The notes below the pieces were generated by a model that was not told where the DNA came from, ran no database searches, and saw only the letters and a list, made by a program, of their open reading frames with translations. A stretch of DNA of 64,000 nt from an uncultured Planctomycetales bacterium (GTDB taxonomy: Bacteria > Omnitrophota > Gorgyraeia > Gygaellales > Profunditerraquicolaceae): the NCBI GenBank assembly GCA_964354585.1, contig CAYHAI010000052.1:6283-70282 (forward strand), read 5' to 3'. Shown here one piece after another: positions 45,463 to 63,477 of this stretch. The position numbers and the translations under genes were made by a program. Each line of letters opens with the position of its first letter. Within the stretch, counting starts at the first letter, position 1.

Positions 45463-46338
45463 TTATTGTCCTAAACCATTGAGCAAGCCGCCTTGCATAA
45501 AATTCAGTAAAATTGGCCCACCCACAATAATGGCAATTACTGGCAATATACAAAAAATTAACGGGATGAGTATCTTTATCGGCGCCTGCAGGGCAATCCG
45601 TTCTCCGCGGTGATAACGCTGTAAGCGCGAATCCTCGGAAAGAATGGCAAAGGCATCTGCCACTGGCGTGCCCATCCTCTCTGCCTGGGCAAGCGTATGC
45701 ACAAAAGAGCTTATCTCCAGTATATTTAATCTTTTAGACATATCTTTGAGGGCTTGGCTGCGGGGCTTGCCCCATTTTATCTCTTCCAGCACAAAGGAAA
45801 ATTCTTCAATGATCGGGCTAGGAGGTAACTTCTCAATAATCCACTTTAAAGCGCTATTAAAATCTAGGCCTGCTTCCACGCACAGGCCGATTAAATCTAC
45901 GGTCTCCGGCAGGTAGCGCACAATTATAAATCTGCGCTTGGCAATCTTGCGGTTGAGGATAATCTCCGGGATAAAATAACCCAAGAGCAGGCACAAAACC
46001 AAAACCCAAGCCTCTAATCTTCCCAAGGCAAAATAGGCGGCAATGGGCAGCAAAATCATCAATAATACTTTCAAATTGAAAAATCCAGCGGCAGTCATTT
46101 TCACATGGGCGGCATCCAGCCTGCGCTTTATGCGCACATCCAGCCCTAATTTCTCTAAGAAAGCGCGGCTAAAAGGAATGAGGTAAGAAAAATAAGAGGG
46201 CGCCTTGGGTTTCTTTAATTGCTCCGCTTGTGGCTCATTCTCCTGAATTTTAATGCTCAGCGGCGAACCATAGCCGGCAAGCCCCAGAGAAATTAAAGCC
46301 CCGGCAGCAATCACTAAAAGAAAAATTAATAAAGCCAT
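45463..46338 (-). CDS. tadC: Tad pilus inner-membrane platform protein TadC (T2SS-F domain)
   Basis: 291-aa ORF with a GspF/T2SSF-like repeat and TM segments. Its position is last in the tad cluster. Confidence 0.8.
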   Translation of the reverse strand: MALLIFLLVIAAGALISLGLAGYGSPLSIKIQENEPQAEQLKKPKAPSYFSYLIPFSRAFLEKLGLDVRIKRRLDAAHVKMTAAGFFNLKVLLMILLPIAAYFALGRLEAWVLVLCLLLGYFIPEIILNRKIAKRRFIIVRYLPETVDLIGLCVEAGLDFNSALKWIIEKLPPSPIIEEFSFVLEEIKWGKPRSQALKDMSKRLNILEISSFVHTLAQAERMGTPVADAFAILSEDSRLQRYHRGERIALQAPIKILIPLIFCILPVIAIIVGGPILLNFMQGGLLNGLGQ

Positions 46339-46350
46339 CTACTTCTCCTT

Positions 46351-47235
46351 TTACACATTTATCGTGCTGAATTTACGGATTAAAATCATCCCCACTGCCT
46401 GTAAGACCACGGCGATAATCAGAAGCATCCTTCCCTGTTCGCTATTCAAAAGAATATCAAAGTGATTACGGTTCATCCCCAGCACGCCGACAATGAAAAC
46501 AAAGGGCAGCACGGACATAATCGCGCCTTGCATCCGGCCTTGCATAGTCAAGGTCTTGATATTTTCTTTTAATTTGCGGTTATCGCGGATAGTCGTGGAA
46601 AGCCGGCTAAAGACCTTGGTTAAATCTCCGCCGGTCTCTTTAGCCACTAAAATGGAATTAACCAATAATCCTAATTCCTCTATGCGCATCCTTTCATTCA
46701 GCCGCTTCAAACTCTCATCTAAGGTTATCCCCATCTTATTCTCTCTTAATACCAGGCCAAACTCCTGCGAGATGGGCGGGGGCAGTTCTTCCACTAAAAC
46801 CTCAATGGCCTGGATAAGCGATAAACCTGCTTTTAAAGACGAGGAGAGCAGCTGCACGCCGTCAATGAGTTGCGCCTGAAACCATATTTTGCGCTGGGCC
46901 TGTAATCTTTTGATGATAAGGGTGGGTAAGGCAAAACCGATTCCTATGCCGATAAAGAGAAAAATTAAGCTCTGGAAGAAAATCAGGCCGAATGCCCCTA
47001 AGAGCAACGGCGGCAGGATATGCATCAAGAGCAGTTTATTTTTCTCTATATGGACGAACATCGTATCTAATTGTTTCTCTGATTCTCCTACTTTTTTTTC
47101 TAAAGGGCGCTGGAATTTCTCTAAAAACAAAGGGATTAACTGGGTGGAGAGCAGCCCGATGGAACTAAACGCCAAAATAAGAATACTCAGTTTTAAAACC
47201 ATTTTACTTCTCCTGATACTGACGGCCAAAGCCAA
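46351..47235 (-). CDS. tadB: Tad pilus inner-membrane platform protein TadB (T2SS-F domain)
   Basis: 294-aa ORF with a T2SSF domain and three TM segments. It is adjacent to tadC. Confidence 0.8.
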   Translation of the reverse strand: MALAVSIRRSKMVLKLSILILAFSSIGLLSTQLIPLFLEKFQRPLEKKVGESEKQLDTMFVHIEKNKLLLMHILPPLLLGAFGLIFFQSLIFLFIGIGIGFALPTLIIKRLQAQRKIWFQAQLIDGVQLLSSSLKAGLSLIQAIEVLVEELPPPISQEFGLVLRENKMGITLDESLKRLNERMRIEELGLLVNSILVAKETGGDLTKVFSRLSTTIRDNRKLKENIKTLTMQGRMQGAIMSVLPFVFIVGVLGMNRNHFDILLNSEQGRMLLIIAVVLQAVGMILIRKFSTINV

Positions 47236-47367
47236 AACTATCTGCTGCCTGGCGCCATTTGCCGCAAAGCGAGCGCTTTAAATATACGGACATCCCAATT
47301 AACGCCGCCGCAATGATGGCTATTAAGACCGCGAACTCTAATGCCGAAAAACCGCGTTTAAGACTTC

Positions 47368-47838
47368 TCATTCAGCGCCCTTCCATTGCAGGGAAACCAA
47401 TTTCTTCTTCCCCAATTTAGAAACCGTAAATAATAATGTTTTATTATAACCCGAATAATCGCAAGCCACAACTACTTCTGCGCCCTGTTGAGCATAAAGC
47501 CGCCAATGAGTGAATGATTTTAATTCTGCCTTGACGCGGCTAAAACCCACAGAAAAACTCTTGATAAATGCCTGGCGATAAGCGGATTTTTCTTTTTCAT
47601 TAGGCAGGCCATTATAAGTTGCGCCTACGTCCATTCCCACGGCTTTAAAATTCTCCCAATCAATAAATTTTTCTGCAGGGGCTGAGCCCTTAACCAAATG
47701 CGTAAATACAGCGCGGCAAAAATTAATCTCTTGATTTTTGACCTGTAAGAAAAAGGCAAGGGCAACCATTATTACTACCAGCAAAATTATGTATTCTAAA
47801 ATTGGTTGATTATTTCTCATTCTGTCTTGTCTAAGCAC
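47368..47838 (-). CDS. TadE-like pseudopilin (class III signal, QPILEY)
   Basis: N-terminus MLRQDRMRNNQPILEYIILLVVIMVALAFF fits the TadE/Flp prepilin-like pattern. Confidence 0.5.
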   Translation of the reverse strand: MLRQDRMRNNQPILEYIILLVVIMVALAFFLQVKNQEINFCRAVFTHLVKGSAPAEKFIDWENFKAVGMDVGATYNGLPNEKEKSAYRQAFIKSFSVGFSRVKAELKSFTHWRLYAQQGAEVVVACDYSGYNKTLLFTVSKLGKKKLVSLQWKGAE

Positions 47839-49871
47839 ACGTTATCATAACGATAATGAGCTACGCTCTTCCTGACCACCTGGCCATTAAACAAGGGGTT
47901 CCACTTGCCTAAAATTCCCATATTTTTATCGGCCGGGTCAGTGCGGGTTATTTGGACCCAAGGACGGCCTGTAGCATTCTCAAGCACCATACAAACCTCA
48001 TCGCTATGGTGTTTCGTCTTGAGCCGAGGCACCTTAAATCTGTTGGTTTCTATCTTTACAATGTGATAACTGGTATATTTTCCGTTAGCATCTTTGGGAC
48101 AACGGGTATCTGCCCAAGCGTACTCTATAGGATTCTTTCCGCCAAAGGCGTCATATGTCCCTTTGTCATCAATTGCGTTTTGAATTTTATTGTATAAATG
48201 TTTAACTGCTTTACGGAAATCTTCAATCTCCTTCATCATCTGCTCTATATCCTTAATTGCCGGCTTAAACTCATCATCCGCTACATTATCTATAGTCCCT
48301 TCATTGTGTGTTAGCCGACAAGGCGGATTACAAACTTCCTCTGCAGAACCTGTGCCATCAGCGCCACAAGGACCATACACGCACTTAGGTAAATTGCCCC
48401 GTTTCTTTTTAAACTCCTTTTTCCAATCATCTAGTCCCGCAAACTCCTTCGTGCCTTCCGCTAAGTCTTTTAGGCTGTCACGATAGTCTTGCCCTTCACC
48501 ATCTTCATCGCTTTCTTTATCCGGGTCATAAAGAAATCCCATCCAGTCCTCCCATTGGTCCACCAATTGATTTAAACTCTCTGCTCCCCAAGTGTCTATT
48601 GCCTCAATTATTTCTTTAAACTCTGTCACTACTCTATCTACGCTATCATAATATTTATCCTCTTCCTGCTCCGGGCAATCCTCGCCTGTACAAACAGTCG
48701 TCTTAGTATGTTCTGGCGGAGTTCCTGACTTATAGAAAGAAAGGTCATAACCAGCATCTTCTAAACCGCGGGCTAATAAAATAATACTGCCGTCAACACC
48801 ATCTAATTCCTGACGAGACAGGGCGCCGCCTGGCGCATATTGCTCGGCAATAAAATCCCGGAAGACCTTGGCTGGCCCGGCCTGAAATTCTCCGTGAACC
48901 ATTTTACCATTAAAGAATTCATCAATCAATGTCTTTAGCTGGGCAAGGTTAGTTTTAGCATTAGCTATGCGGCGCTCCCACCAATACTGAAAATAAGGGA
49001 CTTTTTCCTCAATATCGCCGTCTTCATCCGAATCAAATTCATCAATGTGCATATTCGGGTCATCTACGGTCTGGCTTAAGGCCTGCAAAAATACGCCTTC
49101 GCGGAAGCGGTCTGCCGCCTGTGGTAAGCCATTTAAAGCCTTGGCAGCGGCGGAAAAAGCTGCTTGGGTTATCTTGTCCGCGATATAGGCATTGTAGATA
49201 CTTGCGCCGGCAGCTAAGGTGGTACCCACAATTCCCCCTGTGCTTGTTAAGAGCGCCAAAGGAGTGTTTGCCACCATTAGGGTGCTACCTTGTGTCATTA
49301 CTCCTGCCAACTCCGTAGACCCAACAGTCGCAGGAGTAACCTGATACATAGCTGGGCCTCCTAAGCTAGTTACTGCTCCGCCAATGGCTAAGCCTACACT
49401 AAACCCTTGGATTGCCCCTTGCAACGCCCCAGGCCCGGCAATCGCGCCACCAATTGCCCCTCCTATTGTACCGCCTATAACTGCATTTCCGATTGTAGTC
49501 AAAGCTAAACTCGCTCCAAAAGTAAACGGTGCCAAAAGTATACCCAGTCCTGCGCCAAAAATCCCGCCAATAATGCCGCCCCAGCCGGTTTTTGTACAAC
49601 ATTTAGTAGGCTTACCACAGGCCTTACGCAACGCATCAGATAACATCCGTGACTTGGTGCCTAATTGCGAGGCAAGGTATAAACTGGCAGCATCTGCAGC
49701 ATTGGATAAGTTAGTGGTAGTTACAGAAATCTGGCCGATATTTACCGTCACTAAAACAAAAATTAAAACCGCCACCATTATCAACATCAATAAGGTGGCA
49801 ATCTGGCCGCTGGGCTTTGTGCTACGCAGGCTATTTAAAGACATTGTCTTATAAAGATAACTAATCATCAT
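47817..49871 (-). CDS. TadG-like large pseudopilin / putative pilus-associated adhesin. Gly-rich and acidic, with Cys-rich modules.
   Basis: 684 aa. The N-terminal anchor ...KPSGQIATLLMLIMVAVLIFVLV is TadE/G-like. It is followed by GGxIGG-rich repeats, an acidic DEDGD stretch and CxxC-rich segments. The gene is embedded in the pseudopilin block. Confidence 0.5.
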   Translation of the reverse strand: MMISYLYKTMSLNSLRSTKPSGQIATLLMLIMVAVLIFVLVTVNIGQISVTTTNLSNAADAASLYLASQLGTKSRMLSDALRKACGKPTKCCTKTGWGGIIGGIFGAGLGILLAPFTFGASLALTTIGNAVIGGTIGGAIGGAIAGPGALQGAIQGFSVGLAIGGAVTSLGGPAMYQVTPATVGSTELAGVMTQGSTLMVANTPLALLTSTGGIVGTTLAAGASIYNAYIADKITQAAFSAAAKALNGLPQAADRFREGVFLQALSQTVDDPNMHIDEFDSDEDGDIEEKVPYFQYWWERRIANAKTNLAQLKTLIDEFFNGKMVHGEFQAGPAKVFRDFIAEQYAPGGALSRQELDGVDGSIILLARGLEDAGYDLSFYKSGTPPEHTKTTVCTGEDCPEQEEDKYYDSVDRVVTEFKEIIEAIDTWGAESLNQLVDQWEDWMGFLYDPDKESDEDGEGQDYRDSLKDLAEGTKEFAGLDDWKKEFKKKRGNLPKCVYGPCGADGTGSAEEVCNPPCRLTHNEGTIDNVADDEFKPAIKDIEQMMKEIEDFRKAVKHLYNKIQNAIDDKGTYDAFGGKNPIEYAWADTRCPKDANGKYTSYHIVKIETNRFKVPRLKTKHHSDEVCMVLENATGRPWVQITRTDPADKNMGILGKWNPLFNGQVVRKSVAHYRYDNVCLDKTE

Positions 49872-50128
49872 TTCTCCCCTAAAATATTTAAACGCAAGTA
49901 TCCGGTTTCATTTACCTGTATCTCAGCAGCATTGGTGGTGTTGCCTGCAGCAACGCGGCCTCTCTCAGGATTATACTCATAATCCCGCTGCCTAAGAATA
50001 AAACGTTTATTTAACCAGATAAATAAATTCAGTGTGCCTAATAAAAGAATAAAGACGCTGATAAGCGCCACAGCCATTTCTAAGGAAACTTGCCCCTTTC
50101 TAAACCTACCTACCAATCTGTTTGCCAT
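49868..50128 (-). CDS. tadE: TadE-like pseudopilin
   Basis: 86 aa. N-terminus RKGQVSLEMAVALISVFILLLG matches the TadE N-terminal motif. Confidence 0.65.
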   Translation of the reverse strand: MANRLVGRFRKGQVSLEMAVALISVFILLLGTLNLFIWLNKRFILRQRDYEYNPERGRVAAGNTTNAAEIQVNETGYLRLNILGEK

Positions 50129-51237
50129 TCTTGAGTCCTACTTTTAGGTTCTACCGTGCCGACGACATTTGTTTCATTTGTCTGCGCGTTCTCATTACGC
50201 ATATCCCGAGAAATGATTTTTCTTTCAGTCTCCACCTTCCAATCAAAGGTATCCCGGGAAGCAATGCCAGCAGCACTCTCGCGTTTCTCTAATTTATTAT
50301 TAGTAGTGGCTACCTGGGTATAGCCATCTTGCAAGCCCATACCTTTTGATTTATCCGGGGTAAAGGCAAAAATTTGGTTTAAAACTTTGAAATTATATTG
50401 ATGTGTTTTGTCATTAATCTCTTCGTAATCAGTGGCGGGATTAATGCCGGGCCTAGTCCCGCAATACCAAGGCGCATTCATCGGCTTGCTGCAGGTATCC
50501 GCGCATTTCTTTCCCCCGCCTTCCTCGCAGGTCTCGGTGCAGACTTCTTCATCCACAATCAAGCGGCACTGCCTGACTGCCGCATCATAATTCATAATCT
50601 GACCGGCGCAGCTGTCAATAAATCTTATTTTATTGATGGAGTATTCTTTGCACTTATCCGCGTTCTTAGCATCGTACTTTATACAAGCCTTGTCGTCTTT
50701 GGTCAATTTCTTCAATTTTACCCAGCCTTCTTTGGTTGACCCCTGATTGGTTAACCCCTGAATACTATTACCATATATCTCCACATATTTATCTATGCTT
50801 TCCTCGCTGACATTAAACGAGTAGCTAAATCCAGCGGTCTTGTAGGGAATTTTCTCTCCCTGAACATCAATGATTACCTGCGGCAATTCATCTTCGTAAT
50901 CCGGCGTCTCATCTAATTTATAGGAACGCACAATGCTTGCGCCCGAGGAAAAAGGCATTACCGAGCCCACAGCAAACGTATCCGCAGGATTGGGGATATG
51001 TTTATCTCTGACTACAATGTGTGAAGTAGATACAGGCGTATGCGGATCCATTGACACTGCTGCCGTGGCCAAGGCCTGTCTGAAGGCCTGCTGCATCACC
51101 TGCTGCTGAAAGCCATAGCGCAAGCCATAATTGATTAAGATGCCTAAAAGCATAATTAAAATTGAGCCAAAGATGGCTAATTCTAATATGGCCTGCCCTT
51201 TAATATAAAGATGATTCCATTGTTCCAACTGTCTCAT
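50110..51237 (-). CDS. TadE/TadF-like pseudopilin with a large Cys-rich C-terminal domain
   Basis: 375 aa. N-terminus IKGQAILELAIFGSILIMLLG is TadE-like. The C-terminal part has many Cys (CxxC pairs). Confidence 0.6.
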   Translation of the reverse strand: MRQLEQWNHLYIKGQAILELAIFGSILIMLLGILINYGLRYGFQQQVMQQAFRQALATAAVSMDPHTPVSTSHIVVRDKHIPNPADTFAVGSVMPFSSGASIVRSYKLDETPDYEDELPQVIIDVQGEKIPYKTAGFSYSFNVSEESIDKYVEIYGNSIQGLTNQGSTKEGWVKLKKLTKDDKACIKYDAKNADKCKEYSINKIRFIDSCAGQIMNYDAAVRQCRLIVDEEVCTETCEEGGGKKCADTCSKPMNAPWYCGTRPGINPATDYEEINDKTHQYNFKVLNQIFAFTPDKSKGMGLQDGYTQVATTNNKLEKRESAAGIASRDTFDWKVETERKIISRDMRNENAQTNETNVVGTVEPKSRTQEWQTDW

Positions 51238-51646
51238 CCCCTTTTTGTTTCGTAGTTGAATTATCTAGCACCGATAATGTCTCGGTAGCAAACACATCCT
51301 CATCATCATAATCACCGTCTCCGTTTAGGTCAATATTCGCCCCGGGATGCTCTAAATTAAGCTGGTGCTCACTTAAAGTCCTCGCTGTAGTATTAGAAGT
51401 GCTATTATAACTTACCGTGGAAATTCCGCTGGTATTGCGCGGGGCATACTGCTGGCCTAATTCATCTCCTAATTGGCGTAACCTTCCTTGCATACCGCGC
51501 TTAAGATAAACCTGCATCGCCAATAATGCCGCTACCAGACAAATAACTAACGCGGCGTATTCCAAGGTGGATTGGGCTTTATTTTTTTTCCTGCGATATC
51601 CCCCAAGAAAGAACGCCCTTTTGCGTGGTCGTATCATCCTTTTCAT
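51200..51646 (-). CDS. Flp/TadE-family pilin paralog 1 (start uncertain, probably an internal Met)
   Basis: ...KKNKAQSTLEYAALVICLVAALLAMQVYLKRGMQG: class III prepilin-like N-terminus plus a variable Ser/Thr/Asp-rich tail. Confidence 0.6.
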   Translation of the reverse strand: MKRMIRPRKRAFFLGGYRRKKNKAQSTLEYAALVICLVAALLAMQVYLKRGMQGRLRQLGDELGQQYAPRNTSGISTVSYNSTSNTTARTLSEHQLNLEHPGANIDLNGDGDYDDEDVFATETLSVLDNSTTKQKGDETVGTMESSLY

Positions 51647-51935
51647 AACTTACTGCCCCTCCTGCGCTTTGGGTGGTGGTGGCCTTTGTCACCGCAGAAC
51701 TACTCGTTTCCGAATCGCCCTTTTTTTTCCATTCATATCTGTAGTCATAGTCAGCTGCGCCTTTTTTCTGGTCTCCGATTTTATCTGCTATGACTTTTAT
51801 GTTCGCCTGGATGCCCCTTTTCATATAGACCTGCAGGCCCAAGAGGGCTGCGGAAATAATTCCCACCAGCAGCACATAATCCGTAATACTCTGAGCCTTT
51901 CTCTGAAAAATTATTTTCATTTTTTCTCTACCCAC
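51579..51935 (-). CDS. Flp-family pilin paralog 2
   Basis: ...QRKAQSITDYVLLVGIISAALLGLQVYMKRGIQ plus a variable tail. Confidence 0.6.
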   Translation of the reverse strand: MGREKMKIIFQRKAQSITDYVLLVGIISAALLGLQVYMKRGIQANIKVIADKIGDQKKGAADYDYRYEWKKKGDSETSSSAVTKATTTQSAGGAVSYEKDDTTTQKGVLSWGISQEKK

Positions 51936-52243
51936 GTCTCTACGGTTTCTGTTCCTGTTTCTTTATAAATATCTGCTTGGCCTTTTCCCCCTTGGCCGGA
52001 ATAACTGGTCGTAACCCCCCCGCTTAATTCCTGCACCATTTCTCCTTTATGTCTGGTTTCTGAGTGAACCGCGGTTTTCCCGAGGTCAAATTGCGCGCCG
52101 ATATCATCCGTAGAGGTGCGTAATTTCCCTTGCACCCCGCGCTTAAGATAGGTCTGCAGAAGTAAAAGTGCGGCGATAATCACGCAAACCAGCACTACGT
52201 ATTCCAGGGTAGACTGGGCTTTGGCTAATTTTCGCTTAAACAT
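51917..52243 (-). CDS. Flp-family pilin paralog 3
   Basis: MFKRKLAKAQSTLEYVVLVCVIIAALLLLQTYLKRGVQG. A strong SD (CCTCC on the plus strand) lies upstream. Confidence 0.65.
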   Translation of the reverse strand: MFKRKLAKAQSTLEYVVLVCVIIAALLLLQTYLKRGVQGKLRTSTDDIGAQFDLGKTAVHSETRHKGEMVQELSGGVTTSYSGQGGKGQADIYKETGTETVETWVEKK

Positions 52244-52282
52244 TTGGCTTCACCTCCTAAATTTACTTTGCTCTGTTTACTT

Positions 52283-52639
52283 CTAGTCTGCGTCATCCAC
52301 AGATTTTATCTTCTGATAACCGCTGCGCTCGGTTTCTTTCCCGCCACCTGCTCCGACTACGCGAGTAACTTTACCACTGGCCTCGGTCTTCTCAGTATCC
52401 TTATAAGCCTTGGCCTTGGTTTCATAAGCAGACTCCAGATAATAAGGCTCATACTGGTCTGTCCCAGCGCTTTTAGCGGCCTTATCCACGGTAAATTTCA
52501 CGCCTGCTTGCAGATTTCTCTTGATATAGGTCTGCATCGCGATTGCCGCGGCCACAATTATACCAATAAGGATAGCGTATTCCGCGGTATTCTGGCCCTT
52601 TTTATTTCTCAGCAATGATAGTAACATTTTCTTATTCAC
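52283..52639 (-). CDS. Flp-family pilin paralog 4
   Basis: ...RNKKGQNTAEYAILIGIIVAAAIAMQTYIKR: G/XXXXEY prepilin motif. Confidence 0.65.
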   Translation of the reverse strand: MNKKMLLSLLRNKKGQNTAEYAILIGIIVAAAIAMQTYIKRNLQAGVKFTVDKAAKSAGTDQYEPYYLESAYETKAKAYKDTEKTEASGKVTRVVGAGGGKETERSGYQKIKSVDDAD

Positions 52640-52654
52640 CTCCTATCCCTTGTT

Positions 52655-53020
52655 TTATTTATCAAATAAGGGTTCGTTCACTAATGGCTCCACTGTTTCT
52701 TTGTCTGCGCCCTGGGCGCTATGTTTTATTTCTGCTGGCGTGACCACTTTATAATGAGATACTCCTTGATCTCGAGTAGTCTCGTCATCCGCCAACCCAA
52801 AGGTCTCTTTGGTGGTAGACTCCCCAGCTTGCTCAGTGGTATAGAGAGAAGTTGTCCTACCCGCAGAATACTGCTCGCCAATTTTGTCTGCGGATTCGCG
52901 TAATTTCCCCTGCATACCCCGTTTCATATAGACATTCATCGCCACTAAAGCCGCGGCAATAACCGCAATAATTACTGCGTATTCCAGGGTAGATTGTGCT
53001 TTTTTGTGAGAAAATTTCAT
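52655..53020 (-). CDS. Flp-family pilin paralog 5
   Basis: MKFSHKKAQSTLEYAVIIAVIAAALVAMNVYMKRGMQG. AGGAGG lies 10 nt upstream. Confidence 0.65.
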   Translation of the reverse strand: MKFSHKKAQSTLEYAVIIAVIAAALVAMNVYMKRGMQGKLRESADKIGEQYSAGRTTSLYTTEQAGESTTKETFGLADDETTRDQGVSHYKVVTPAEIKHSAQGADKETVEPLVNEPLFDK

Positions 53021-53069
53021 TTTTCTTTCACCTCCTCAACCGCTCTTGCTTAAGAGTTCCCTTATTCTT

Positions 53070-53435
53070 TTAATAATCCTGTTTTTGATAATCCCCGCTC
53101 GCCTGCTTTGTTCTACGGATAGTATCCCGCGTGACACTGCCTTCCTTAGTCATATCTTCTGTTTTAGCATCTTCAAGCACGGCCTGCGTGGATTTACTGG
53201 ATAAATTTCCCATCTCATATTGTCCGGATGCAGTGGCTGCGGTATTACTAATACTCGCCCAATCCCCACTTCCGGTAAGACCAGTATAAAAATCATCTCC
53301 GGCATCTTTAGACCTTGCTTGCATGCCCCTTTTGACATAGGTTTGTATCCCTATGGCTGCTGCGATGACTAGACCAATAAGAATAGCGTATTCCGCGGTA
53401 TTCTGGCCTTTCTTATTTCTTAAGATTCTCAACAT
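53070..53435 (-). CDS. Flp-family pilin paralog 6. The track ORF extends to 53474, but the likely start is ATG 53435 behind AGGAGGTG.
   Basis: MLRILRNKKGQNTAEYAILIGLVIAAAIGIQTYVKRGMQ. The SD AGGAGG lies 7 nt upstream of ATG 53435. Confidence 0.6.
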   Translation of the reverse strand: MLRILRNKKGQNTAEYAILIGLVIAAAIGIQTYVKRGMQARSKDAGDDFYTGLTGSGDWASISNTAATASGQYEMGNLSSKSTQAVLEDAKTEDMTKEGSVTRDTIRRTKQASGDYQKQDY

Positions 53436-53484
53436 ATTTTCACCTCCTAAATTATTCACCTGTTCCGCTGCCACCTGACTAAGG

Positions 53485-53664
53485 TTACTTTGGCACTACT
53501 TTATCTGCGGCTTTACCAATCGCGCTATTGGCATTGTTTAAAGATGCCTGGACTGCTGGCTTAATCCAGGTTGCTGCGGCATAAATAATTAAGCCGACAA
53601 TCGCGGTCAAGATGAGTAAATATTCCAATGTGCTCTGGCCGTTTTTCTTTAAAGATTTTACCAT
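53485..53664 (-). CDS. flp: Flp pilin paralog 7 (59 aa, below the track cut-off)
   Basis: Manual translation: MVKSLKKNGQSTLEYLLILTAIVGLIIYAAATWIKPAVQASLNNANSAIGKAADKVVPK. This has classic Flp length and the G/QSTLEY motif. Confidence 0.6.
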   Translation of the reverse strand: MVKSLKKNGQSTLEYLLILTAIVGLIIYAAATWIKPAVQASLNNANSAIGKAADKVVPK

Positions 53665-53679
53665 ATCAGCTTCACCCCC

Positions 53680-53877
53680 TTATTTTACCATATCTGCTAC
53701 TTTACCTGAATCTGTTTGTATCCTATCTCCTGCCTGTTTCATTAATTTCCCCACTCCACCTTCACCTGTCGGCTCTTTTTTCCCTAATATAACTGCGAGA
53801 GCAACTACTGCCGCAATTATTGCGGTAAAAACAATTACGTATTCCAATGTACCCTGGGCTTTTTTCTTTCTCAACAT
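53680..53877 (-). CDS. flp: Flp pilin paralog 8 (65 aa)
   Basis: MLRKKKAQGTLEYVIVFTAIIAAVVALAVILG... Confidence 0.6.
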   Translation of the reverse strand: MLRKKKAQGTLEYVIVFTAIIAAVVALAVILGKKEPTGEGGVGKLMKQAGDRIQTDSGKVADMVK

Positions 53878-53892
53878 ATTTTCACCCCCCTA

Positions 53893-54063
53893 TTATGGTT
53901 GTGGTTCAGCATTAATTTGGTCTTCTACCAGCTTTAAGTTTGCCTGCACTGAACGCTGGACATAGACATTCATCGCCATTAAAGCCGCAGCCACCACGGA
54001 AATAATCAGCGCGTATTCCAAAACACTCTGGCCGCGCCTGGTGGTTATTTTGCCCAACTTCAT
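53893..54063 (-). CDS. flp: Flp pilin paralog 9 (56 aa, below the track cut-off)
   Basis: Manual translation: MKLGKITTRRGQSVLEYALIISVVAAALMAMNVYVQRSVQANLKLVEDQINAEPQP. The SD GAAGGAG lies upstream. Confidence 0.55.
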   Translation of the reverse strand: MKLGKITTRRGQSVLEYALIISVVAAALMAMNVYVQRSVQANLKLVEDQINAEPQP

Positions 54064-54075
54064 CTTCCTCTCCTT

Positions 54076-54291
54076 CTATTTATTTGCCAAGTTTAACCCG
54101 CTGGTTCCTATCGCCTTTTGGAAAAACCCCTTTGTCTTACTATTGCCTTGCAGCGTCCTTTGTATCACCGGTAAAAAAGAACTGAAAGATAAGATAACCA
54201 AAAGCGCAACTACACTAAAAATTATAAAATATTCCAAAGAAGCTTGGCCTTTTTTACTTTTATTTATTTTTAAGGACTTTATAAAAGTCAT
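54076..54291 (-). CDS. flp: Flp pilin paralog 10 (71 aa), first gene of the pilin array
   Basis: MTFIKSLKINKSKKGQASLEYFIIFSVVALLVILSF... Confidence 0.6.
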   Translation of the reverse strand: MTFIKSLKINKSKKGQASLEYFIIFSVVALLVILSFSSFLPVIQRTLQGNSKTKGFFQKAIGTSGLNLANK

Positions 54292-54742: not shown

Positions 54743-54771
54743 TTGACATTGGACATTTCTTATGTTATATT
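54743..54771 (+). promoter_or_regulatory. Consensus sigma70 promoter TTGACA-17-TATATT, overlapping an inverted repeat ATTGGACATTT / AAATGTCCAAT (operator-like)
   Basis: -35 at 54743-54748 and -10 at 54766-54771. The inverted-repeat arms lie at about 54749-54759 and 54786-54796. Confidence 0.5.
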
Positions 54772-54815
54772 TAAATCGAGATGATAAATGTCCAATCTAT
54801 AAAAATGGGCGAAAA

Positions 54816-56525
54816 ATGGGCGTAATTTATAAATTAAAACCCGAAATTAAAAACTGGCTATTAGAAAGAAAACGGACTAACCCGGTTTTAAGTTGCCGCG
54901 GCCTAGTCTCTCTACTGGAAGAGGAATTTAAAATAAAGGTTTCCAAATCTAGTGTTAACTGCTTGGTTAAAGAAGCTGGCCTGAGTATGCCCATAGGAAG
55001 AAGGCAGAAAAAAAGAAGGCGCCAGGTTCCTGCCGCAGTTCAGCCTCAACCAGAGCCAACCATAGAAATACCCCTTCAACTACCTGCGCCAACTCAGCCA
55101 GAACCAGCCTTAGAGGCGCCTATTGAACCTCAGCCGGAAATGCCTAAAGAAACACCTACACCACCTCAGCTAGAAGTGCCTATAGAAACTCCACCATCAG
55201 AAACACCTATGTCCATTCCGCCAGAATTACCGATACAGACATCCCTGCAAATACCGGACGAAATTCTGCAAAAAATGCTCTCGTCGGGTATAATTTTGCT
55301 GAAGGCAGCGGATTATTTAATCGGTGGCAGCTACCTTATTCAGGAAACGATGAAAAAACACCTAAACCTGCGCGATAAAAATCTGTTAGATAAAATAGAA
55401 TGTTTAATCTATGCGCCCTTGTTGGGGATACCTGAAGAACTGTCCAAGACATATCTTAATGAATTACAAGGGGCAGAATCAATAGCCCAAGAGATATTGC
55501 GGGTTTTATCCGGCATATTAACCGAGATACGTTGTCTCAAAGTCCTTTTAGCCGATGGAGATGCTTTATATTTAGATGGCCAATTTCATACCATCTGGTC
55601 AGTGCCCAATATTCCCTATGATTTTGTAAACACTATCTACAATATAAAAAATTATATAACCAAATCCTTCTACAAAGATGAGCCCCTTACCCTTTTGATG
55701 GCTCCGGGTTACGATACGCCTACCATGGAATTCTTCAATTTCATTTTAAGTTTCGGGGGCAGGATGAAAAACATTACTAGACTTAGTATCGATGACAATA
55801 AATCGCAGGAGTTGGAGTCCACGCCCTTAGAGCAGAATAAAAAACGCTCCTTCGTATTGGGGCTTTGGCCCTGGCAGTTTGTAGAATATCGCCGGGTTAA
55901 GAAAATAGGGGATTTTAAGCCCTTTTATTTCCAGGCGCAGGGGAAAAACTTCTATCTGGCCGATATAGAGATTGAATTATCTTGGCCCAACAAATATCAA
56001 TCAATTACATTTTCCGGTTGCGCCTTGAAAACAAATCTCGCTGAAAAAACGCGTTTGATTATAATAAGTAACCTTGCTGGAGAGTTAGCCAAGCCCGAAT
56101 ATCTGGCGAATACCTATCTTAGCCGCTGGCCAAATTTAGAAGAAGCATTCCAAGATTTTAGTCATAAAGTTGAACTCTTTACCTATACTGCTGACTCCCA
56201 GGGCTTCTTTTTTGTAGAGAAGTTGAATTTGAACCAAGACACATCCGGCATAAAACAATTGCTTGACTGGTATCTTGGGGTATTAGATTTATATGTTAAA
56301 TGGCACTTCCTCCCCTCTGAATATACAGGCAAAGACTTATTGACCCTCAAAGAGGGGTTTTACGACCTTAAGGTAGTTTTCCAACCGCAAAAAGAGCATG
56401 CCTTAGCAACCTTCCAACCACCTTCGGGATTCCGCTCCCTAAATGCGCTGGAATACGCCTGCCGCAGGCTAAACGAAAGAGAAATTATCCTTACCGACGG
56501 CAAGCGCCTCTGGTTCTCCCCCTAA
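54816..56525 (+). CDS. Putative transposase: N-terminal HTH, Pro-rich linker, C-terminal DDE-type domain with an RW...E...F...K motif. The track ORF starts at 54762, but the first ATG lies in the promoter spacer, so the start is probably 54816.
   Basis: MGVIYKLKPEIKNWLLERKRTNPVLSCRGLVSLLEEEFKIKVSKSSVNCLVKEAGL is HTH-like. A PQPEP-type proline linker follows. YLSRWPNLEEAFQDFSHK resembles the Y-R-W-E-F-K signature of IS4/IS701-like DDE transposases. The gene is flanked by direct REP-like copies. Confidence 0.5.
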   Translation: MGVIYKLKPEIKNWLLERKRTNPVLSCRGLVSLLEEEFKIKVSKSSVNCLVKEAGLSMPIGRRQKKRRRQVPAAVQPQPEPTIEIPLQLPAPTQPEPALEAPIEPQPEMPKETPTPPQLEVPIETPPSETPMSIPPELPIQTSLQIPDEILQKMLSSGIILLKAADYLIGGSYLIQETMKKHLNLRDKNLLDKIECLIYAPLLGIPEELSKTYLNELQGAESIAQEILRVLSGILTEIRCLKVLLADGDALYLDGQFHTIWSVPNIPYDFVNTIYNIKNYITKSFYKDEPLTLLMAPGYDTPTMEFFNFILSFGGRMKNITRLSIDDNKSQELESTPLEQNKKRSFVLGLWPWQFVEYRRVKKIGDFKPFYFQAQGKNFYLADIEIELSWPNKYQSITFSGCALKTNLAEKTRLIIISNLAGELAKPEYLANTYLSRWPNLEEAFQDFSHKVELFTYTADSQGFFFVEKLNLNQDTSGIKQLLDWYLGVLDLYVKWHFLPSEYTGKDLLTLKEGFYDLKVVFQPQKEHALATFQPPSGFRSLNALEYACRRLNEREIILTDGKRLWFSP

Positions 56526-56663: not shown

Positions 56664-57146
56664 ATGTCAAGGGGAGCAAGATTAACTTTAGACAACGCCT
56701 CTTATCATATCATGGTAAGAGGAAACCAGAAACAAGTTACTTTTATTGAAGAAACAGATTTCCTAAAATATCTTGAACTATTAAAACACTATAAAAAGAA
56801 ATATAAGTTTAAATTGTACGGGTATTGTTTAATGCCTAACCATATACATCTAATAATCGATATCGAGAAAGGGTCTGACGTGGCTAAGATTATGCAAGGA
56901 TTAAATCAAACATACACAATCTGGTTCAATGAAAAATATAAAAAAGTGGGCCATCTATGGCAAGGAAGATACAAAAGTATGCTTATCCAGAAAAATAAAT
57001 ATATGCTTGAATGCATAGAATATGTAGAATTTAATCCTATTAGAGCAAACATAAGCAAATCTCCTTTTGAATATCGTTGGAGCAGCTGGCAAGAACGCCT
57101 GGGTTGCAAGGAAAATACCCTACTGAACTTACCCCAATTAACTTAA
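56664..57146 (+). CDS. tnpA: REP-associated tyrosine transposase (RAYT) / IS200-like HuH transposase TnpA
   Basis: 160 aa with the HuH motif LMPNHIHLII and a downstream catalytic-Tyr region (FEYRWSSWQ). It has a strong SD GGAGGT and is flanked by inverted REP-like copies 2 and 3. Confidence 0.75.
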   Translation: MSRGARLTLDNASYHIMVRGNQKQVTFIEETDFLKYLELLKHYKKKYKFKLYGYCLMPNHIHLIIDIEKGSDVAKIMQGLNQTYTIWFNEKYKKVGHLWQGRYKSMLIQKNKYMLECIEYVEFNPIRANISKSPFEYRWSSWQERLGCKENTLLNLPQLT

Positions 57147-57186: not shown

Positions 57187-57564
57187 TTATTCTATGAGGA
57201 GGGTATCATTTTGGCAGGTGGAGGTTGATTGAATAATACCTGGGGGTAATTCAATAGCAAAAGCAGCATTAAAATATGCACAGGTAATACAGAATGGCCT
57301 TAAAGAGGTTATGGTTTTTATGACCCGGCTGTTTTTATCCACGAATAAGACATCTATAGGAAAGCGCATAAAAAAGGTATGTATGGAATTGCATGGCCTT
57401 AAGATAAGCGCCTGGCTCGGTTTAAATTCCTTTCTACCCAAAAGGCCTTTCATTCTTTTAAAAAGACTGTTAGCGATTATGGCTTCTTCGGCTAAAATAG
57501 TATTTTGGGTTTTATTAATTATCTTCATTCTTTCTTTGGGGGACACCCTTCCGATTAGTTCCAA
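57187..57564 (-). CDS. DUF192-family protein (COG1430-like)
   Basis: Motifs FKRMKGLLGR...LILRPCNSIHTFFMRFPIDVLFVDKNSRV match the DUF192 pattern. Confidence 0.5.
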   Translation of the reverse strand: MELIGRVSPKERMKIINKTQNTILAEEAIIANSLFKRMKGLLGRKEFKPSQALILRPCNSIHTFFMRFPIDVLFVDKNSRVIKTITSLRPFCITCAYFNAAFAIELPPGIIQSTSTCQNDTLLIE

Positions 57565-59755: not shown

Positions 59756-61348
59756 TTAATCTAAACGATAGATTATGGGAACCTCTATCCAGAGTTCCTG
59801 CTGGTCTATAGAGGAAGGAAAGGGTGGATAAGGAGAAATATTTTTTGCCGCAGAAACCGCATTATCATCCAGGACCTGATAACCCGAAGAATCTTTAACC
59901 ATCGCCTCTAAAAGCTCGCCGCGATAAGAAAGGCGCAGCTTCAGCCTTACCGTTCCCTGAAAACCCGCTTCTTTGGCTGGGCGAGGATAAGTCAAATTTT
60001 CTAAGATGCGTTTTTGCACCAACCGGGCGTATCCTGTTGCCGGCGTAGAAGTGTCTTCAACAATGGCGGGAGAAACTATTTCTGGTTTTATTTGTTTTTC
60101 TGCTTGGGCTAATTCTTTTTTCTCGCTGACTATGGTGGGGGTAAGGGCAATAAATAATTCGGTGTTGCCGCGTTCGCCTTGGCCACCGCCTAATTTAGTA
60201 ACCTTTTGCCTAAAAAATAAACCTAAGACCGGCACGTCGGCTAACCAAGGAACTTTACGCAGGTCCTCTTCGGTCTTTTGCTTGATTAAACCGCCTATGG
60301 CTATGGTCTGGCCGTCATTAATATAAAGTTCGGTAGAGGCGCTGCGTTTAGTCAAAGGATATGCCCTGGCAGTAGTCTCTGTGGCCGAACCAATAGTCTC
60401 GGCTGTGCCTACCTCGCTTACTTCCACATCTACGCCTAACTTGATGCGCTTCTCTTCGTTTACCGTGGGCCTTATCTTTAGCTTTATGCCGTATTCTTTG
60501 TATTCCACGGTGCTGGAAGTTGAGCCTCCCTCGCTAGTAGAGGTAGTGAAAATCGGCTTCTCTCCGCCCACTAATAATTGCGCTTCTTTGCCGCTTTGAC
60601 AAGCCAGCCGCGGCCGGGAGAGAACGCGCGCTTTACCTTCCTGAATTAAAGCATCTAACTTCAAGGTAAAGGCAGCCCGCGTTTCGTTTACTACTCGGAA
60701 TATTTTTGACCATGTGGTACCAGCAATAGCAGGAGAACCGCTTTCGGTAAGGGCAATGCTACCCGGCCAGGTAAAACCTAAAGTATCCGTGGCGTCTTTG
60801 CTAAGCTCTAAAACCTGCACATCAATATCCACTACTGCCTCTTCTTCTTTTATCACCAGAAGGTCAACAATTTTGTCTTTAAGCGTTCCTAAGGCAGTGT
60901 TAATCCTTTCTCTCTCTTGAGGCGTTTTGACATTACCCATGAGAATAACTTTATTCTCTTCGTCTACTGCCTTCGTGTATACCCCAGAAAGATTAAGACT
61001 ACTTAATATATTATCCACGCGGCGCTTAATTTCTTGCATATCCTCGGCAAAGACTTTTACCCGATAAGACTGCTCGCCAAAATTATCCCAAAAGACCAAC
61101 GTAGTTACCCCTGCCGATTTCGGGGCAAGGGTGATTTCGCTGGTCGTTACATTTATTACATCGGCAATGCTGGGGTTGCCGATAGCAATGCGCCGCGGCT
61201 GGCTGACCGGGATAATTTTAACCTCGCCCATATATAGCTCTAATTCCTCTTGCGCCGGGGAGGCCGCTTCATTTAAGGCATAATTATCGGCGGGAAACAC
61301 CAGAAAACCTGCAATCATTAAAGAAGTTATTAAGAAAATTTTTCTCAT
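59756..61348 (-). CDS. cpaC: CpaC/RcpA-type secretin with a C-terminal TonB_C-like domain
   Basis: Signal peptide MRKIFLITSLMIAGFLVFPA. Secretin signature VPWLADVPVLGLFFR...ELFIALTPTIV. A C-terminal extension follows: YPRPAKEAGFQGTVRLKLRLSYRGELLEAMVKDSSGYQVLDDNAVSAAKNISPYPPFP, matching the TonB C-terminal domain pattern. Confidence 0.75.
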   Translation of the reverse strand: MRKIFLITSLMIAGFLVFPADNYALNEAASPAQEELELYMGEVKIIPVSQPRRIAIGNPSIADVINVTTSEITLAPKSAGVTTLVFWDNFGEQSYRVKVFAEDMQEIKRRVDNILSSLNLSGVYTKAVDEENKVILMGNVKTPQERERINTALGTLKDKIVDLLVIKEEEAVVDIDVQVLELSKDATDTLGFTWPGSIALTESGSPAIAGTTWSKIFRVVNETRAAFTLKLDALIQEGKARVLSRPRLACQSGKEAQLLVGGEKPIFTTSTSEGGSTSSTVEYKEYGIKLKIRPTVNEEKRIKLGVDVEVSEVGTAETIGSATETTARAYPLTKRSASTELYINDGQTIAIGGLIKQKTEEDLRKVPWLADVPVLGLFFRQKVTKLGGGQGERGNTELFIALTPTIVSEKKELAQAEKQIKPEIVSPAIVEDTSTPATGYARLVQKRILENLTYPRPAKEAGFQGTVRLKLRLSYRGELLEAMVKDSSGYQVLDDNAVSAAKNISPYPPFPSSIDQQELWIEVPIIYRLD

Positions 61349-61358
61349 CTATCTCCTT

Positions 61359-62255
61359 TTATTTATTTAAAGGGACTTTTTCTTTATTCAGGCCGCGGTA
61401 TATCTCTACATATGCGCCTGCCTCTGGCTCAGCCTGCTTTACGGATTGCGACGGCGCAGTTTGCGGCATCACGTATTGAAACAGGGTATCCCAACTGGCC
61501 GGCGCTATAGGCTCTACTTTGGCATCGGTGGGCGAACGCAAAATCAATCTGAGCTTTCCCTGCTCTTGCACAAAGGCCATGAGATTTGCCTCTTGGGGAG
61601 TAAGCGCCAAAGTAATTAGCCCCCCCGCTGCTGTCTCTTTCTTAGTTTCACTTTTATATCTTGGCTGTGCGGCCATAGCCGGAGAACCTATGTCCTGGCC
61701 TACAGCCAAAATTAATACATTTTGGAACAGCGGCATTACTGCGGTTTGAGTCGCTGGTTTGCCTTCAGGGGTCTGCACCGTAATAGGCACCATGGCAATA
61801 ACATCTACATAGTCTCCGGGCCTAATCATTCCGCCCAAAGAAGCAATTTCATCTGCAGGAATAGAAATTGCCCTTTTGCCTACCGGTGTCACCGAGGCTA
61901 AATCGCCTACGCTGCGCGCTAAAGACAATTTACTTAAGGTAATCTGCTCATCCTTTGATATAGGAACGACCGCTGTCATTCCGGCAATTCTATCTAAAGA
62001 ACTTACCGCCCCCGGCTGTAAAAATTGATTGGGTACGACTTTTACGCCTAAGTCGTCAGGGCTTATAATTGCCCCCTGCGGGATATCTGTCTTGGCAAAT
62101 AATGCCGGGGTCTGGCTTGCCTGGTTCTTTTCGTATTTTCTCTGGGCAGACTCCTCGGCAACCATGCGCTGTTGATCAAGATAAACTTTAACCATAAATA
62201 CCGCGATTAAAGCCAAAACCACACCGATGATTAAAATAAGGCGTTGTTTTTGCAT
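61359..62255 (-). CDS. cpaB: Flp pilus assembly protein CpaB/RcpC
   Basis: 298 aa with an N-terminal TM anchor and a SAF/RcpC-like core. Its position is directly upstream of the secretin. Confidence 0.7.
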   Translation of the reverse strand: MQKQRLILIIGVVLALIAVFMVKVYLDQQRMVAEESAQRKYEKNQASQTPALFAKTDIPQGAIISPDDLGVKVVPNQFLQPGAVSSLDRIAGMTAVVPISKDEQITLSKLSLARSVGDLASVTPVGKRAISIPADEIASLGGMIRPGDYVDVIAMVPITVQTPEGKPATQTAVMPLFQNVLILAVGQDIGSPAMAAQPRYKSETKKETAAGGLITLALTPQEANLMAFVQEQGKLRLILRSPTDAKVEPIAPASWDTLFQYVMPQTAPSQSVKQAEPEAGAYVEIYRGLNKEKVPLNK

Positions 62256-63170
62256 CTATTTTATTTCTCCTTCCCGAATTTCTATTTTTGAATCCCGCGA
62301 AAGCTTGCCGATTAAGTCATCTATGCTTTTTTGCTGTTTAAGAAAAGTAAGCCCTTTCTTGATATCGTCCCACATTTCAGAAAGCGACCTTTGCTTGCCG
62401 CCGCGCTTGGCTTCTAATTTTAAAATGTAGTAACCGTCGGGCCCTCTAAAAATATTGCTGATTTTACCTACGTCTAAACTATCGGCAAAAGCCACCTCAT
62501 CAAATTGAGGCGCCTTATTTCCTCTTTTGATAAATCCTAAATCTCCGCCATTTGCGCTGCTGGCGGACTTAGACCTTTCTTTGGCCAAAGTAGCAAAATC
62601 TGCGCCTTGCAATAACTGAATCATTACATCCTTGGCCTCTTGCTCTGTGGAAACCATGATCTCCCTAACCTGTCTTTCTTCCGGCTCCTTGAGTTGTTCC
62701 TTATAGGTATTATAATAATCCTCTATTTCCCGCGAGCTGACATCAACTTTTTCGGTTTCCTGCTTTAACAATTCTATCATTAAAATTTCTCTTTTGTTCT
62801 TCTCTAGCGCCTTTAATGCCTCCTCATTCCTATCCAATCCCCTATCTAACGCCTCCTGATAAAGGAGTGTGCGGCGTAGGAGTTCATTTTTTAAATAATC
62901 AATCTTTTGTTCGCGCGTAGTAATCCTGGCCTCGGGTTTATTGTTCGTGGTCATTAAAGCATTGTAGGCGTCTATCTCGGCGTTTAAATCCTCCAAGGTA
63001 ATCGGTATGTTATTCACCTTGGCAATAAGCGTGCCCTTGACTTCTGTTTCGCTAGCGGGCTTGTCTTTTTTTATAGTCTTATTAGACAATAATAAATTGA
63101 TCTTATCGCAACCCAAGAAAAAAGATATCATAAAAAGAAAGATGCAGAGTATAATAAAACGCCGTTTCAT
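62256..63170 (-). CDS. SurA/PrsA-like periplasmic peptidyl-prolyl isomerase lipoprotein (parvulin domain)
   Basis: Lipobox FFLGC. Parvulin motif GGDLGFIKRGNKAPQFDEVAF...GYYILKL. Confidence 0.7.
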   Translation of the reverse strand: MKRRFIILCIFLFMISFFLGCDKINLLLSNKTIKKDKPASETEVKGTLIAKVNNIPITLEDLNAEIDAYNALMTTNNKPEARITTREQKIDYLKNELLRRTLLYQEALDRGLDRNEEALKALEKNKREILMIELLKQETEKVDVSSREIEDYYNTYKEQLKEPEERQVREIMVSTEQEAKDVMIQLLQGADFATLAKERSKSASSANGGDLGFIKRGNKAPQFDEVAFADSLDVGKISNIFRGPDGYYILKLEAKRGGKQRSLSEMWDDIKKGLTFLKQQKSIDDLIGKLSRDSKIEIREGEIK

Positions 63171-63183
63171 TTTCTCTCCTTTT

Positions 63184-63477
63184 TTATTCTTTCTTGATTT
63201 CGTTGATTATCTTAATCAATAAATCGGCGATTTTAGCAATAAGATAAAAGAAAAAGAAGAAGAAGGCGTAGATTGCTAAAATAATTACGCCCATCCAACG
63301 GGGATTGCCCGGGACCATGCCTAAAATTATGGAAATTCCGCCGATCACGCCCAGAAACAAAAAAATCCAGGCAGCAACTTTTACTACTACACTGGAAGTC
63401 TTTAAAAACCCTAAATGTTCACGCATCAGCCCTCCCTCGTTTTCTTTATTTTTAGCATAAAGTTTGCTAAAACGCAA
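63184..63477 (-). CDS. Small two-TM membrane protein of unknown function
   Basis: 97-aa ORF whose hydrophobic segments mark it as a membrane protein. No homology recognised. Confidence 0.35.
   Translation of the reverse strand: MRFSKLYAKNKENEGGLMREHLGFLKTSSVVVKVAAWIFLFLGVIGGISIILGMVPGNPRWMGVIILAIYAFFFFFFYLIAKIADLLIKIINEIKKE

Follow-up and report, generated by a model that had tools for sequence, protein, structure and literature searches.

The window analysed here, a 64,000-nucleotide stretch of contig CAYHAI010000052.1 from an uncultured bacterium placed by GTDB in the Omnitrophota, carries on its reverse strand a tad (Flp pilus) locus whose secretin gene encodes a TonB C-terminal domain (TonB_C) behind the usual secretin core. 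The gene is complete, opens with an ATG and encodes 530 amino acids (aa) in the list of open reading frames (ORFs) of the window. It is closely packed between its neighbours, starting 10 nt after the stop codon of the CpaB gene and ending 3 nt before the start of a fused CpaE-CpaF gene. A database protein, P0001 (NCBI data), is 100% identical to it. A reading of the bare sequence had previously proposed that this Tad secretin runs on for about 120 residues past its canonical motifs, with a pattern typical of TonB_C. The strings that it quoted lie at residues 366–380 (VPWLADVPVLGLFFR), 397–407 (ELFIALTPTIV) and 454–509 (YPRPAKEAGFQG...PYPP) of the protein, and the extension beyond the secretin core measures 123 aa (residues 408–530), so the observation of a Tad secretin with a C-terminal TonB_C is confirmed.

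The N-terminal half of the protein has the make-up of a Tad secretin. A predicted Sec signal peptide is supported by the sequence as read by eye, by an AlphaFold2 (AF2) helix at residues 2–17 and by the family consensus, its cleavage site having been placed by eye without a dedicated predictor. Neither a lipobox nor a TonB-type membrane anchor was found at the N-terminus. The signal peptide is followed by a T2SS-T3SS_pil_N domain, by a second periplasmic N-domain recognised from the AF2 secondary structure, and by the Secretin pore domain. The Secretin_N and STN (N0) domains, as found in GspD and PilQ, gave no Pfam match in the protein. For the pore domain, the sequence matches in the PDB are 8jvb and RcpA (8odn), while Foldseek returned 9wfd, 8jvb and 8odn.

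Beyond the pore domain, a flexible linker leads to a complete TonB C-terminal domain of the ‘long’ type. Pfam places TonB_C (PF03544) at residues 451–529, covering positions 2–79 of the 79-position profile with 54.2 bits against a gathering cutoff of 24.6 (E = 2e-14), and the NCBIfam model tonB_Cterm (TIGR01352) scores 50.7 bits against a cutoff of 27.1; both matches are thus well over their thresholds. The domain is laid out as a leading helix (residues 436–451), a YP motif, a β-β-α-β core and a terminal IPIxY strand.

Structural modelling gave the same picture. In a full-length AF2 model built on 61 aligned sequences, the N-domains are confidently predicted and the pore domain moderately so; residues 436–530 reach a predicted local distance difference test (pLDDT) score of 88–94, and residues 408–431 of the linker are of low confidence. 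A separate model of residues 396–530 shows the C-terminal module at pLDDT > 90 in the order helix-helix-strand-strand-helix-strand. When this model was compared with the PDB by Foldseek, matches 1–20 were all TonB, HasB or FusB C-terminal domains or TolA domain III, with target-normalised template-modelling scores of up to 0.81 and a root-mean-square deviation of 1.4–2.5 Å for the best-superposed pairs. They include H. pylori TonB, the Neisseria TonB-TbpA complex, HasB, FusB and E. coli TonB-BtuB. A profile of the family C-terminus, searched against the PDB, aligned with the H. pylori TonB C-terminal domain from the leading helix to the terminal IPIxY strand (E = 4.4e-9). The full-length model matched the Acidithiobacillus secretin (9wfd, 8jvb), other secretins and P. 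aeruginosa RcpA (8odn), and TonB C-domains were matched separately from these. Because its separate parts match secretins on one side and TonB C-domains on the other, the fusion protein joins a Tad secretin to a complete TonB C-terminal domain, and its end has the fold of the TonB C-terminal domain and TolA domain III.

The same architecture is widespread. All 120 best homologs in a collection of 5.8 billion proteins share the three-domain Pfam architecture; those with a named source come from Candidatus Omnitrophota or Omnitrophica and bear the database name ‘TonB family protein’ or ‘pilus assembly protein CpaC’. A HMMER search of 1.84 billion representatives clustered at 50% identity returned 422 proteins at E ≤ 1e-30, the best 150 of which align to the last residues at about 30% identity. 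When 85 such representatives were scanned with Pfam, Secretin was found in all of them and TonB_C in 83. Of the 268 homologs collected, 263 were found by a local hidden Markov model (HMM) to carry TonB_C; the remaining five include four fragments. Among GTDB species-representative genomes, 161 stretches encode relatives, and the best 80 cover the query to residue 528–530, giving the fusion a presence in at least 80 GTDB species. These 80 genomes are labelled Omnitrophota, apart from 17 labelled ‘uncultured Planctomycetales’ and one plain ‘bacterium’; the genome of Velamenicoccus archaeovorus is not one of them. One relative, on a 3.5-kb contig, bears the label ‘Hydrothermarchaeota’ and is probably mis-binned.

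A search started from a divergent member sets the limit of the family. Every match at or above 245 bits carries TonB_C, and matches at or below 159 bits are ordinary CpaC, GspD or PilQ proteins without it. Judged by sequence, the fusion family is thus a discrete, deeply diverged clade with a sharp boundary. The extension is the rule within this large Omnitrophota clade and is missing from the nearest other Tad secretins. The sequence-only reading had called a TonB_C on a secretin unusual, which holds among characterised secretins; the combination is nevertheless not rare in nature. A frameshift, an assembly artefact or a chance fusion can be ruled out, because an identical protein (P0001) exists and the architecture recurs in hundreds of homologs.

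Some members depart from the common form. Eleven of the 268 homologs (P0073, P0155, P0163, P0169, P0172, P0177, P0184, P0193, P0249, P0258 and P0263) have two tandem TonB_C copies after the secretin core; one of them, P0249, shows an additional weak C-terminal match to the tetratricopeptide repeat (TPR). Some members reach 1,045–1,091 aa and have very long spacers. Outside the clade, P0375 (7565..9430 of locus L087) is a secretin of the GspD type (N0, Secretin_N, Secretin) whose gene lies in a type II secretion locus, and it ends in a weak TonB_2-like module (26.6 bits, residues 532–615) at the position of the S-domain. This module is probably an independent acquisition.

Constraint within the family falls on the folded parts of the protein. 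In members with less than 40% overall identity to the window protein, the TonB_C core is still 40.9% identical to it, which compares with 41.4% for the pore domain, 27–33% for the N-domains and 10.9% for the linker. Across the family comparisons linker identity is 11–24%. The linker has a median length of 33 aa (range 16–357) and is enriched in E, K, A, S and P, and the family alignment revealed no conserved motif in it. A conserved core on a freely varying linker is what one would expect if selection acts on a binding module and leaves its tether unconstrained.

If TonB_C is such a binding module, its ligand might lie within the secretin ring itself: the domain would bind a strand of the neighbouring protomer, or dimerise, and so stabilise the multimer without any external partner. 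Isolated TonB C-domains can dimerise, tandem copies occur in the 11 members named above, and the AF2 model of residues 396–530 contains a four-residue β-strand, PEIV, in the linker (residues 422–425, approximately 60074..60085 on the reverse strand; pLDDT ~65). This strand, however, is missing from the full-length model and is not conserved in the family (information content ≤ 0.8 bits per position), and linker lengths that range from 16 to 357 aa do not allow for a fixed geometry between protomers. Stapling of the ring by TonB_C is therefore unlikely. The related idea of a self-binding ‘TonB box’ at PEIV is not supported either, as the linker has no conserved motif.

The presence of TonB_C does not make the protein a TonB. 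Its N-terminus consists of a signal-peptide-like helix followed by secretin domains, with no inner-membrane anchor helix that could serve ExbB-ExbD, and its spacer (28 aa; family median as above) joins the domain to an outer-membrane barrel rather than to an anchor in the inner membrane. The ORFs of the tad region of the window that were scanned with Pfam include no ExbB, ExbD or TonB-dependent transporter. The neighbourhoods of related fusion genes were taken as 10 kb on each side of the secretin for the best 80 of the 161 relatives. In the 14 most widespread flank families of these 80 loci, we found no ExbB/ExbD, TonB-dependent transporter, OmpA-like or TPR protein, no dedicated model for ExbB/ExbD or the transporters having been run; the same four kinds of protein are also missing among the Pfam-labelled genes of the control locus L084. 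No other ORF bearing TonB_C occurs in 1.23 Mb of related loci and the window. With no inner-membrane anchor and no ExbBD seen within 10 kb on each side, the fusion is not a TonB energy transducer, and a true TonB protein is ruled out.

A weaker connection to Ton systems would be that the secretin-borne domain binds the TonB boxes of TonB-dependent transporters, or competes with the TonB of the cell, and thereby clusters or regulates import beside the pilus. All canonical TonB_C sequence features are kept, and the alignment with H. pylori TonB runs from end to end. On the other hand, the surveys just described show no second TonB_C and no transporter or ExbBD among the scanned neighbours, a TonB_C without a motor cannot energise transport, and the linkage of the fusion is invariant with tad genes only. 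Crosstalk of this kind is accordingly quite improbable.

The features of the locus are collected in Table 1. The gene order orf97, parvulin/SurA-like lipoprotein, CpaB, secretin-TonB_C, CpaE-CpaF, DUF192 and Flp pilins is fixed, and holds in the 80 related loci as well as in the window. In the presence counts that follow, and in those of the table with a smaller denominator than 80, only loci with enough sequence are considered, contig ends being accounted for.

Table 1 Features of the tad locus and its surroundings; residues refer to the protein and positions to the 64-kb window.
Feature	Position	Strand	Evidence or remark
Tad secretin-TonB_C fusion gene, complete	59756..61348	-	ORF list, Pfam, NCBIfam; stop codon 59756-59758
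Predicted Sec signal peptide, ~residues 1-24	61277..61348	-	Hydrophobic helix followed by conserved ..YA motif
T2SS-T3SS_pil_N (PF13629), residues 33-99	61052..61252	-	Pfam 51.5 bits; pLDDT ~90
Second periplasmic N-domain, alpha/beta, ~residues 101-190	60779..61048	-	AF2 secondary structure, pLDDT 83-89
Secretin pore domain (PF00263), residues 233-407	60128..60652	-	Pfam 141 bits
Flexible linker SEKKELAQAEKQIKPEIVSPAIVEDTSTP, residues 408-435 (28 aa)	60044..60127	-	pLDDT < 50
Complete ‘long’ TonB C-terminal domain, residues 436-530	59759..60043	-	Pfam, AF2, Foldseek, profile against PDB
orf97, small membrane protein, first gene of the operon	63184..63477	-	Same position in 57/80 loci
Parvulin (PpiC)/SurA-like lipoprotein	62256..63170	-	Pfam Rotamase and SurA_N; lipobox LGC conserved
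CpaB/RcpC alignment-complex protein	61359..62255	-	TIGR03177 170 bits; Pfam RcpC and SAF
Fused CpaE/TadZ (MinD-like) and CpaF/TadA ATPase, 718 aa	57596..59752	-	Pfam, NCBIfam
DUF192 (COG1430) protein	57187..57564	-	Pfam; 69/71 loci
IS200-like Y1 transposase gene	56664..57146	+	Adjoins the 587-aa gene; recurs in 20 loci
587-aa protein	54762..56525	+	N-terminal helix-turn-helix, Pro-rich stretch, C-terminal region without Pfam match
Rest of the tad locus	45463..54291	-	ORFs, Pfam T2SSF and Tad, synteny
Seven tandem Flp-like pilin ORFs, 65-134 aa	51917..54291	-	
Further pilin-like ORFs	51200-51935		
TadG-like protein	47817-49871	-	
TadB	46351-47235	-	
TadC	45463-46338	-	
Stop-free frame, 14,923 codons	2..44770	-	Runs off the window start, directly downstream of TadC

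The gene directly upstream of CpaB, and thus two genes upstream of the secretin, encodes the parvulin/SurA-like lipoprotein. It was found in 73 of 73 fusion loci, and the cysteine of its lipobox is invariant and followed by aspartate. We are not aware of any characterised Tad locus that has a peptidyl-prolyl isomerase lipoprotein of its own. CpaB is present in 77/77 fusion loci and CpaE-CpaF in 78/78, being clearly fused in 70; the nearest non-fusion tad loci have an FHA-CpaF gene in place of the CpaE-CpaF fusion. The DUF192 protein, which has no obvious signal peptide, is also found in the nearest non-fusion tad loci (L081, L082 and L085), and seems to represent an accessory gene that has gone unrecognised in this Tad lineage. 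A scan of the operon for promoters and terminators gave no enrichment over shuffled sequences. Past the Flp-like pilins the tad locus continues with pilin-like ORFs and ORFs of no recognised family before the TadG-like, TadB and TadC genes.

Several further observations concern the surroundings of these genes. The longer Flp-like pilin ORFs are long for Flp pilins and share the N-terminal pattern ...KKGQxTxEY...QTYxKRGxQ.... At first sight the gene for the 587-aa protein suggested an insertion, yet it recurs in 58 of the 80 loci and belongs to their conserved gene set; elsewhere it usually lies on the strand of the secretin, and since it has the opposite strand here, the segment that holds it seems to be inverted in the window. 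The long stop-free frame is an Omnitrophota-type giant gene with a hydrophobic, apparently membrane-spanning stretch near its start (by eye). It has a weak Peptidase_C39-like match at residues 193–275 of the scanned segment and PEP-utilizers_C and LysM domains much further in, and most of the 10,000 scanned residues have no Pfam match. In approximately 36–39 of the 80 loci (L003–L084), genes for a FIST-domain protein, a histidine kinase and a response-regulator/GGDEF protein lie divergently upstream of the tad operon, which hints at control of the pilus by cyclic di-GMP. None of these genes lies in the 64-kb window, which ends about 0.5 kb upstream of orf97.

A comparison with the nearest Tad loci that lack TonB_C bears on what the domain may do. 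The three nearest Tad secretins without TonB_C are 440–499 aa long and end just past the pore domain. All three of their loci encode, next to the DUF192 gene that they have in common with the fusion operon, a TPR lipoprotein of 164–168 aa with a lipobox, which by its sequence features is a putative TadD-like pilotin. An HMM made from these non-fusion proteins found nothing below E = 0.04 when run against the 80 fusion loci and the tad region of the window, all translated in six frames, and a Pfam scan of that region showed no TPR ORF. Conversely, the parvulin lipoprotein occurs in none of the three non-fusion loci. Within the DNA examined, then, TonB_C with the parvulin lipoprotein and the TPR pilotin are mutually exclusive. 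The three non-fusion loci also have no OmpA-like gene, so that the gene alternating with TonB_C is a TPR pilotin and not a peptidoglycan anchor. The earlier suggestion that the extension could replace a pilotin hence gains comparative support.

Taking these lines together, we propose that TonB_C has replaced the pilotin-binding tail of the secretin and serves as a tethered docking module for an assembly or anchoring partner, with the parvulin lipoprotein as the leading candidate; we give this reading a probability of roughly 0.5. The fusion gene codes for the secretin that a Tad (Flp) pilus machine of the Omnitrophota has in its outer membrane, and on this reading the short TadD-docking tail of other Tad secretins has given way to a complete TonB C-terminal domain on a spacer of about 30 aa. 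Once the ring is assembled, which in P. aeruginosa RcpA is 13- to 14-fold, the domains would form a crown of tethered modules at the outer rim of the barrel; the C-terminus seen in RcpA-TadD suggests that they lie outside the barrel in the periplasm. TonB and TolA C-domains bind their targets by β-strand addition (PMC12204202), and by analogy each module most likely captures an exposed β-strand of its partner, as TonB does with TonB boxes and TolA with TolB. TonB_C would in this way be a built-in docking site, taking the place of the TadD pilotin system, and the parvulin/SurA-like lipoprotein encoded two genes upstream would be the foremost candidate for the partner or chaperone. Both the identity of this partner and the role of the domain in assembly or anchoring are inferred.

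The tether narrows the choice of targets. A spacer with a median of about 33 residues reaches only a few nanometres, which speaks against a target at the inner membrane and in favour of one close to the outer membrane or the cell wall. The same reach suits a second kind of target, the cell wall itself. The TonB_C crown might tie the secretin to peptidoglycan, either directly or via a peptidoglycan-associated protein, and so play in cis a part like that proposed for CpaD round Caulobacter CpaC, or for the AMIN domains and TsaP in type IVa pili; the pore would then hold against the pull of a retracting pilus in a cell that attaches or is predatory. Binding of peptidoglycan by TonB C-terminal domains has been claimed in print, but the claim is debated. 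The 80 fusion loci show no recurrent OmpA-like or CpaD-like gene, and CpaD has been modelled as a belt round CpaC and proposed as its peptidoglycan anchor (PMC13170226). The three nearest non-fusion loci, however, do without an OmpA-like gene just as the fusion loci do, and peptidoglycan binding is not an established activity of TonB_C. We thus consider a cell-wall anchor of either kind the less likely reading.

In a more speculative arrangement, the crown captures a strand of a motor-associated protein of the inner membrane and couples the proton-motive force mechanically to the secretin. That protein, encoded elsewhere, could be ExbD/TolR-like and without a TonB, or another component coupled to a stator. 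Members with linkers of up to 357 aa and those with tandem TonB_C could then span the periplasm. If true, the link could serve to gate the secretin, or to resist or assist pilus retraction, with a polarity opposite to that of every known Ton or Tol system. We regard this as highly improbable.

Several results weigh against the proposal of a docking module with the parvulin lipoprotein as its partner, or at least limit it. The contrast in gene content is one between 80 fusion loci and three non-fusion loci, two of which are close relatives. Since the survey covered 10 kb on each side of the secretin, genes for a pilotin, for ExbBD or for TonB-dependent transporters could lie in other parts of these genomes. 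The full-length AF2 model has a predicted template-modelling score of 0.40; the domains are therefore not placed relative to one another, and the position of TonB_C relative to the barrel is not predicted. Direct binding to peptidoglycan would also fit these data. Moreover, no conserved segment resembling a TonB box was found in the parvulin lipoprotein, CpaB, DUF192, orf97 or the N-terminus of the secretin, and a scan for docking-strand motifs that included the termini of orf375, orf148 and orf118 gave nothing convincing. A mirror-tree analysis revealed no signal of co-evolution between TonB_C and any protein of the operon (partial r = 0.03 for the parvulin lipoprotein) and was uninformative.

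One neighbour can be set apart in this search. The conserved C-terminal YVEIYRG of CpaB corresponds to the canonical RcpC β-hairpin that binds the secretin N-domain, and in P. aeruginosa the C-terminal hairpin of RcpC/CpaB contacts the pil_N domain of RcpA (PMC12307814). With this motif conserved, TonB_C is not needed for contact between CpaB and the secretin.

The docking-module proposal bears on a general feature of secretins. Whether they serve type II or type III secretion, type IV pili or Tad pili, secretins generally depend on a dedicated helper, which is a pilotin or a peptidoglycan-binding accessory, for reaching the outer membrane and remaining fixed there, and how this need is met varies between systems. 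The Omnitrophota clade appears to meet it differently, with a fused strand-capture domain, a linked parvulin lipoprotein and no TadD gene at the locus. Should this be confirmed, secretins would have a new way of being assembled or anchored and one that offers a testable alternative to pilotin-dependent assembly; it would also be, to our knowledge, the first TonB C-domain mounted on an outer-membrane protein and facing inward. The host-attached or predatory way of life of the ultra-small Omnitrophota bacteria is believed to rest on Tad pili. The fusion occurs in an essentially uncultured phylum, and in the window the gene that directly follows the tad operon downstream exceeds 14,900 codons.

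Full-text literature searches found no description of a secretin-TonB_C fusion and none of Ton systems in Omnitrophota. The main paper on the Omnitrophota discusses Tad and RcpA and leaves TonB unmentioned, and a 2026 preprint reports ‘TonB-domain’ genes flanking giant genes without recognising their nature; these may be fusion secretins. Automatic annotations already show the architecture, which appears to have gone uninterpreted so far. The automatic name ‘TonB family protein’, widely given to these secretins, miscounts Ton systems and hides Tad secretins in surveys of Omnitrophota genomes.

Among known systems, the C-terminal module is closest to the C-terminal domains of TonB, HasB and FusB and to TolA domain III, to which it is related by HMM, profile and fold, and with which it shares the YP motif, the SSG..LD motif, the aromatic-Pro motif and the final edge strand. 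Those domains end proteins that are anchored in the inner membrane and driven by ExbBD or TolQR, whereas the TonB_C of the fusion hangs from an outer-membrane protein. With its polarity reversed and neither anchor nor motor, the fusion cannot transmit the proton-motive force by the known route.

The S-domain of type II and type III secretins recruits a lipoprotein that is needed for outer-membrane targeting and assembly. The pairs GspD-AspS and PulD-PulS (5zdh, 6hcg) resemble the present system in having a C-terminal element past the secretin core and a linked lipoprotein gene. S-domains are short helical or coiled segments, however, while TonB_C is an autonomous folded domain, and the parvulin/SurA-like lipoprotein belongs to a chaperone type and does not have a known pilotin fold.

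Within the Tad family, the CpaC-CpaD pair of Caulobacter crescentus (PMC13170226) likewise combines a barrel with a periplasmic accessory module that is thought to stabilise or anchor it. In Caulobacter this module is a separate OmpA-like lipoprotein, whereas here it is the covalent TonB_C, with no OmpA-like gene nearby. The TadD ortholog of Caulobacter is dispensable (PMC13170226), so a TadD-type pilotin is not universal among Tad secretins. The nearest parallel is the RcpA-TadD system of P. aeruginosa (8odn; PMC10499894), which shares the order of pil_N and Secretin by sequence and fold, the operon partners RcpC/CpaB, TadA/CpaF, TadZ/CpaE, TadB, TadC and Flp pilins, and an accessory-binding element C-terminal to the pore domain. 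In RcpA this element is an unstructured tail, the last four residues of which insert into a groove of the TPR lipoprotein TadD, and it is essential for secretin assembly (PMC10499894). At the same position the fusion secretin, whose locus has no TadD-like gene, carries a linker and a folded domain of about 95 aa.

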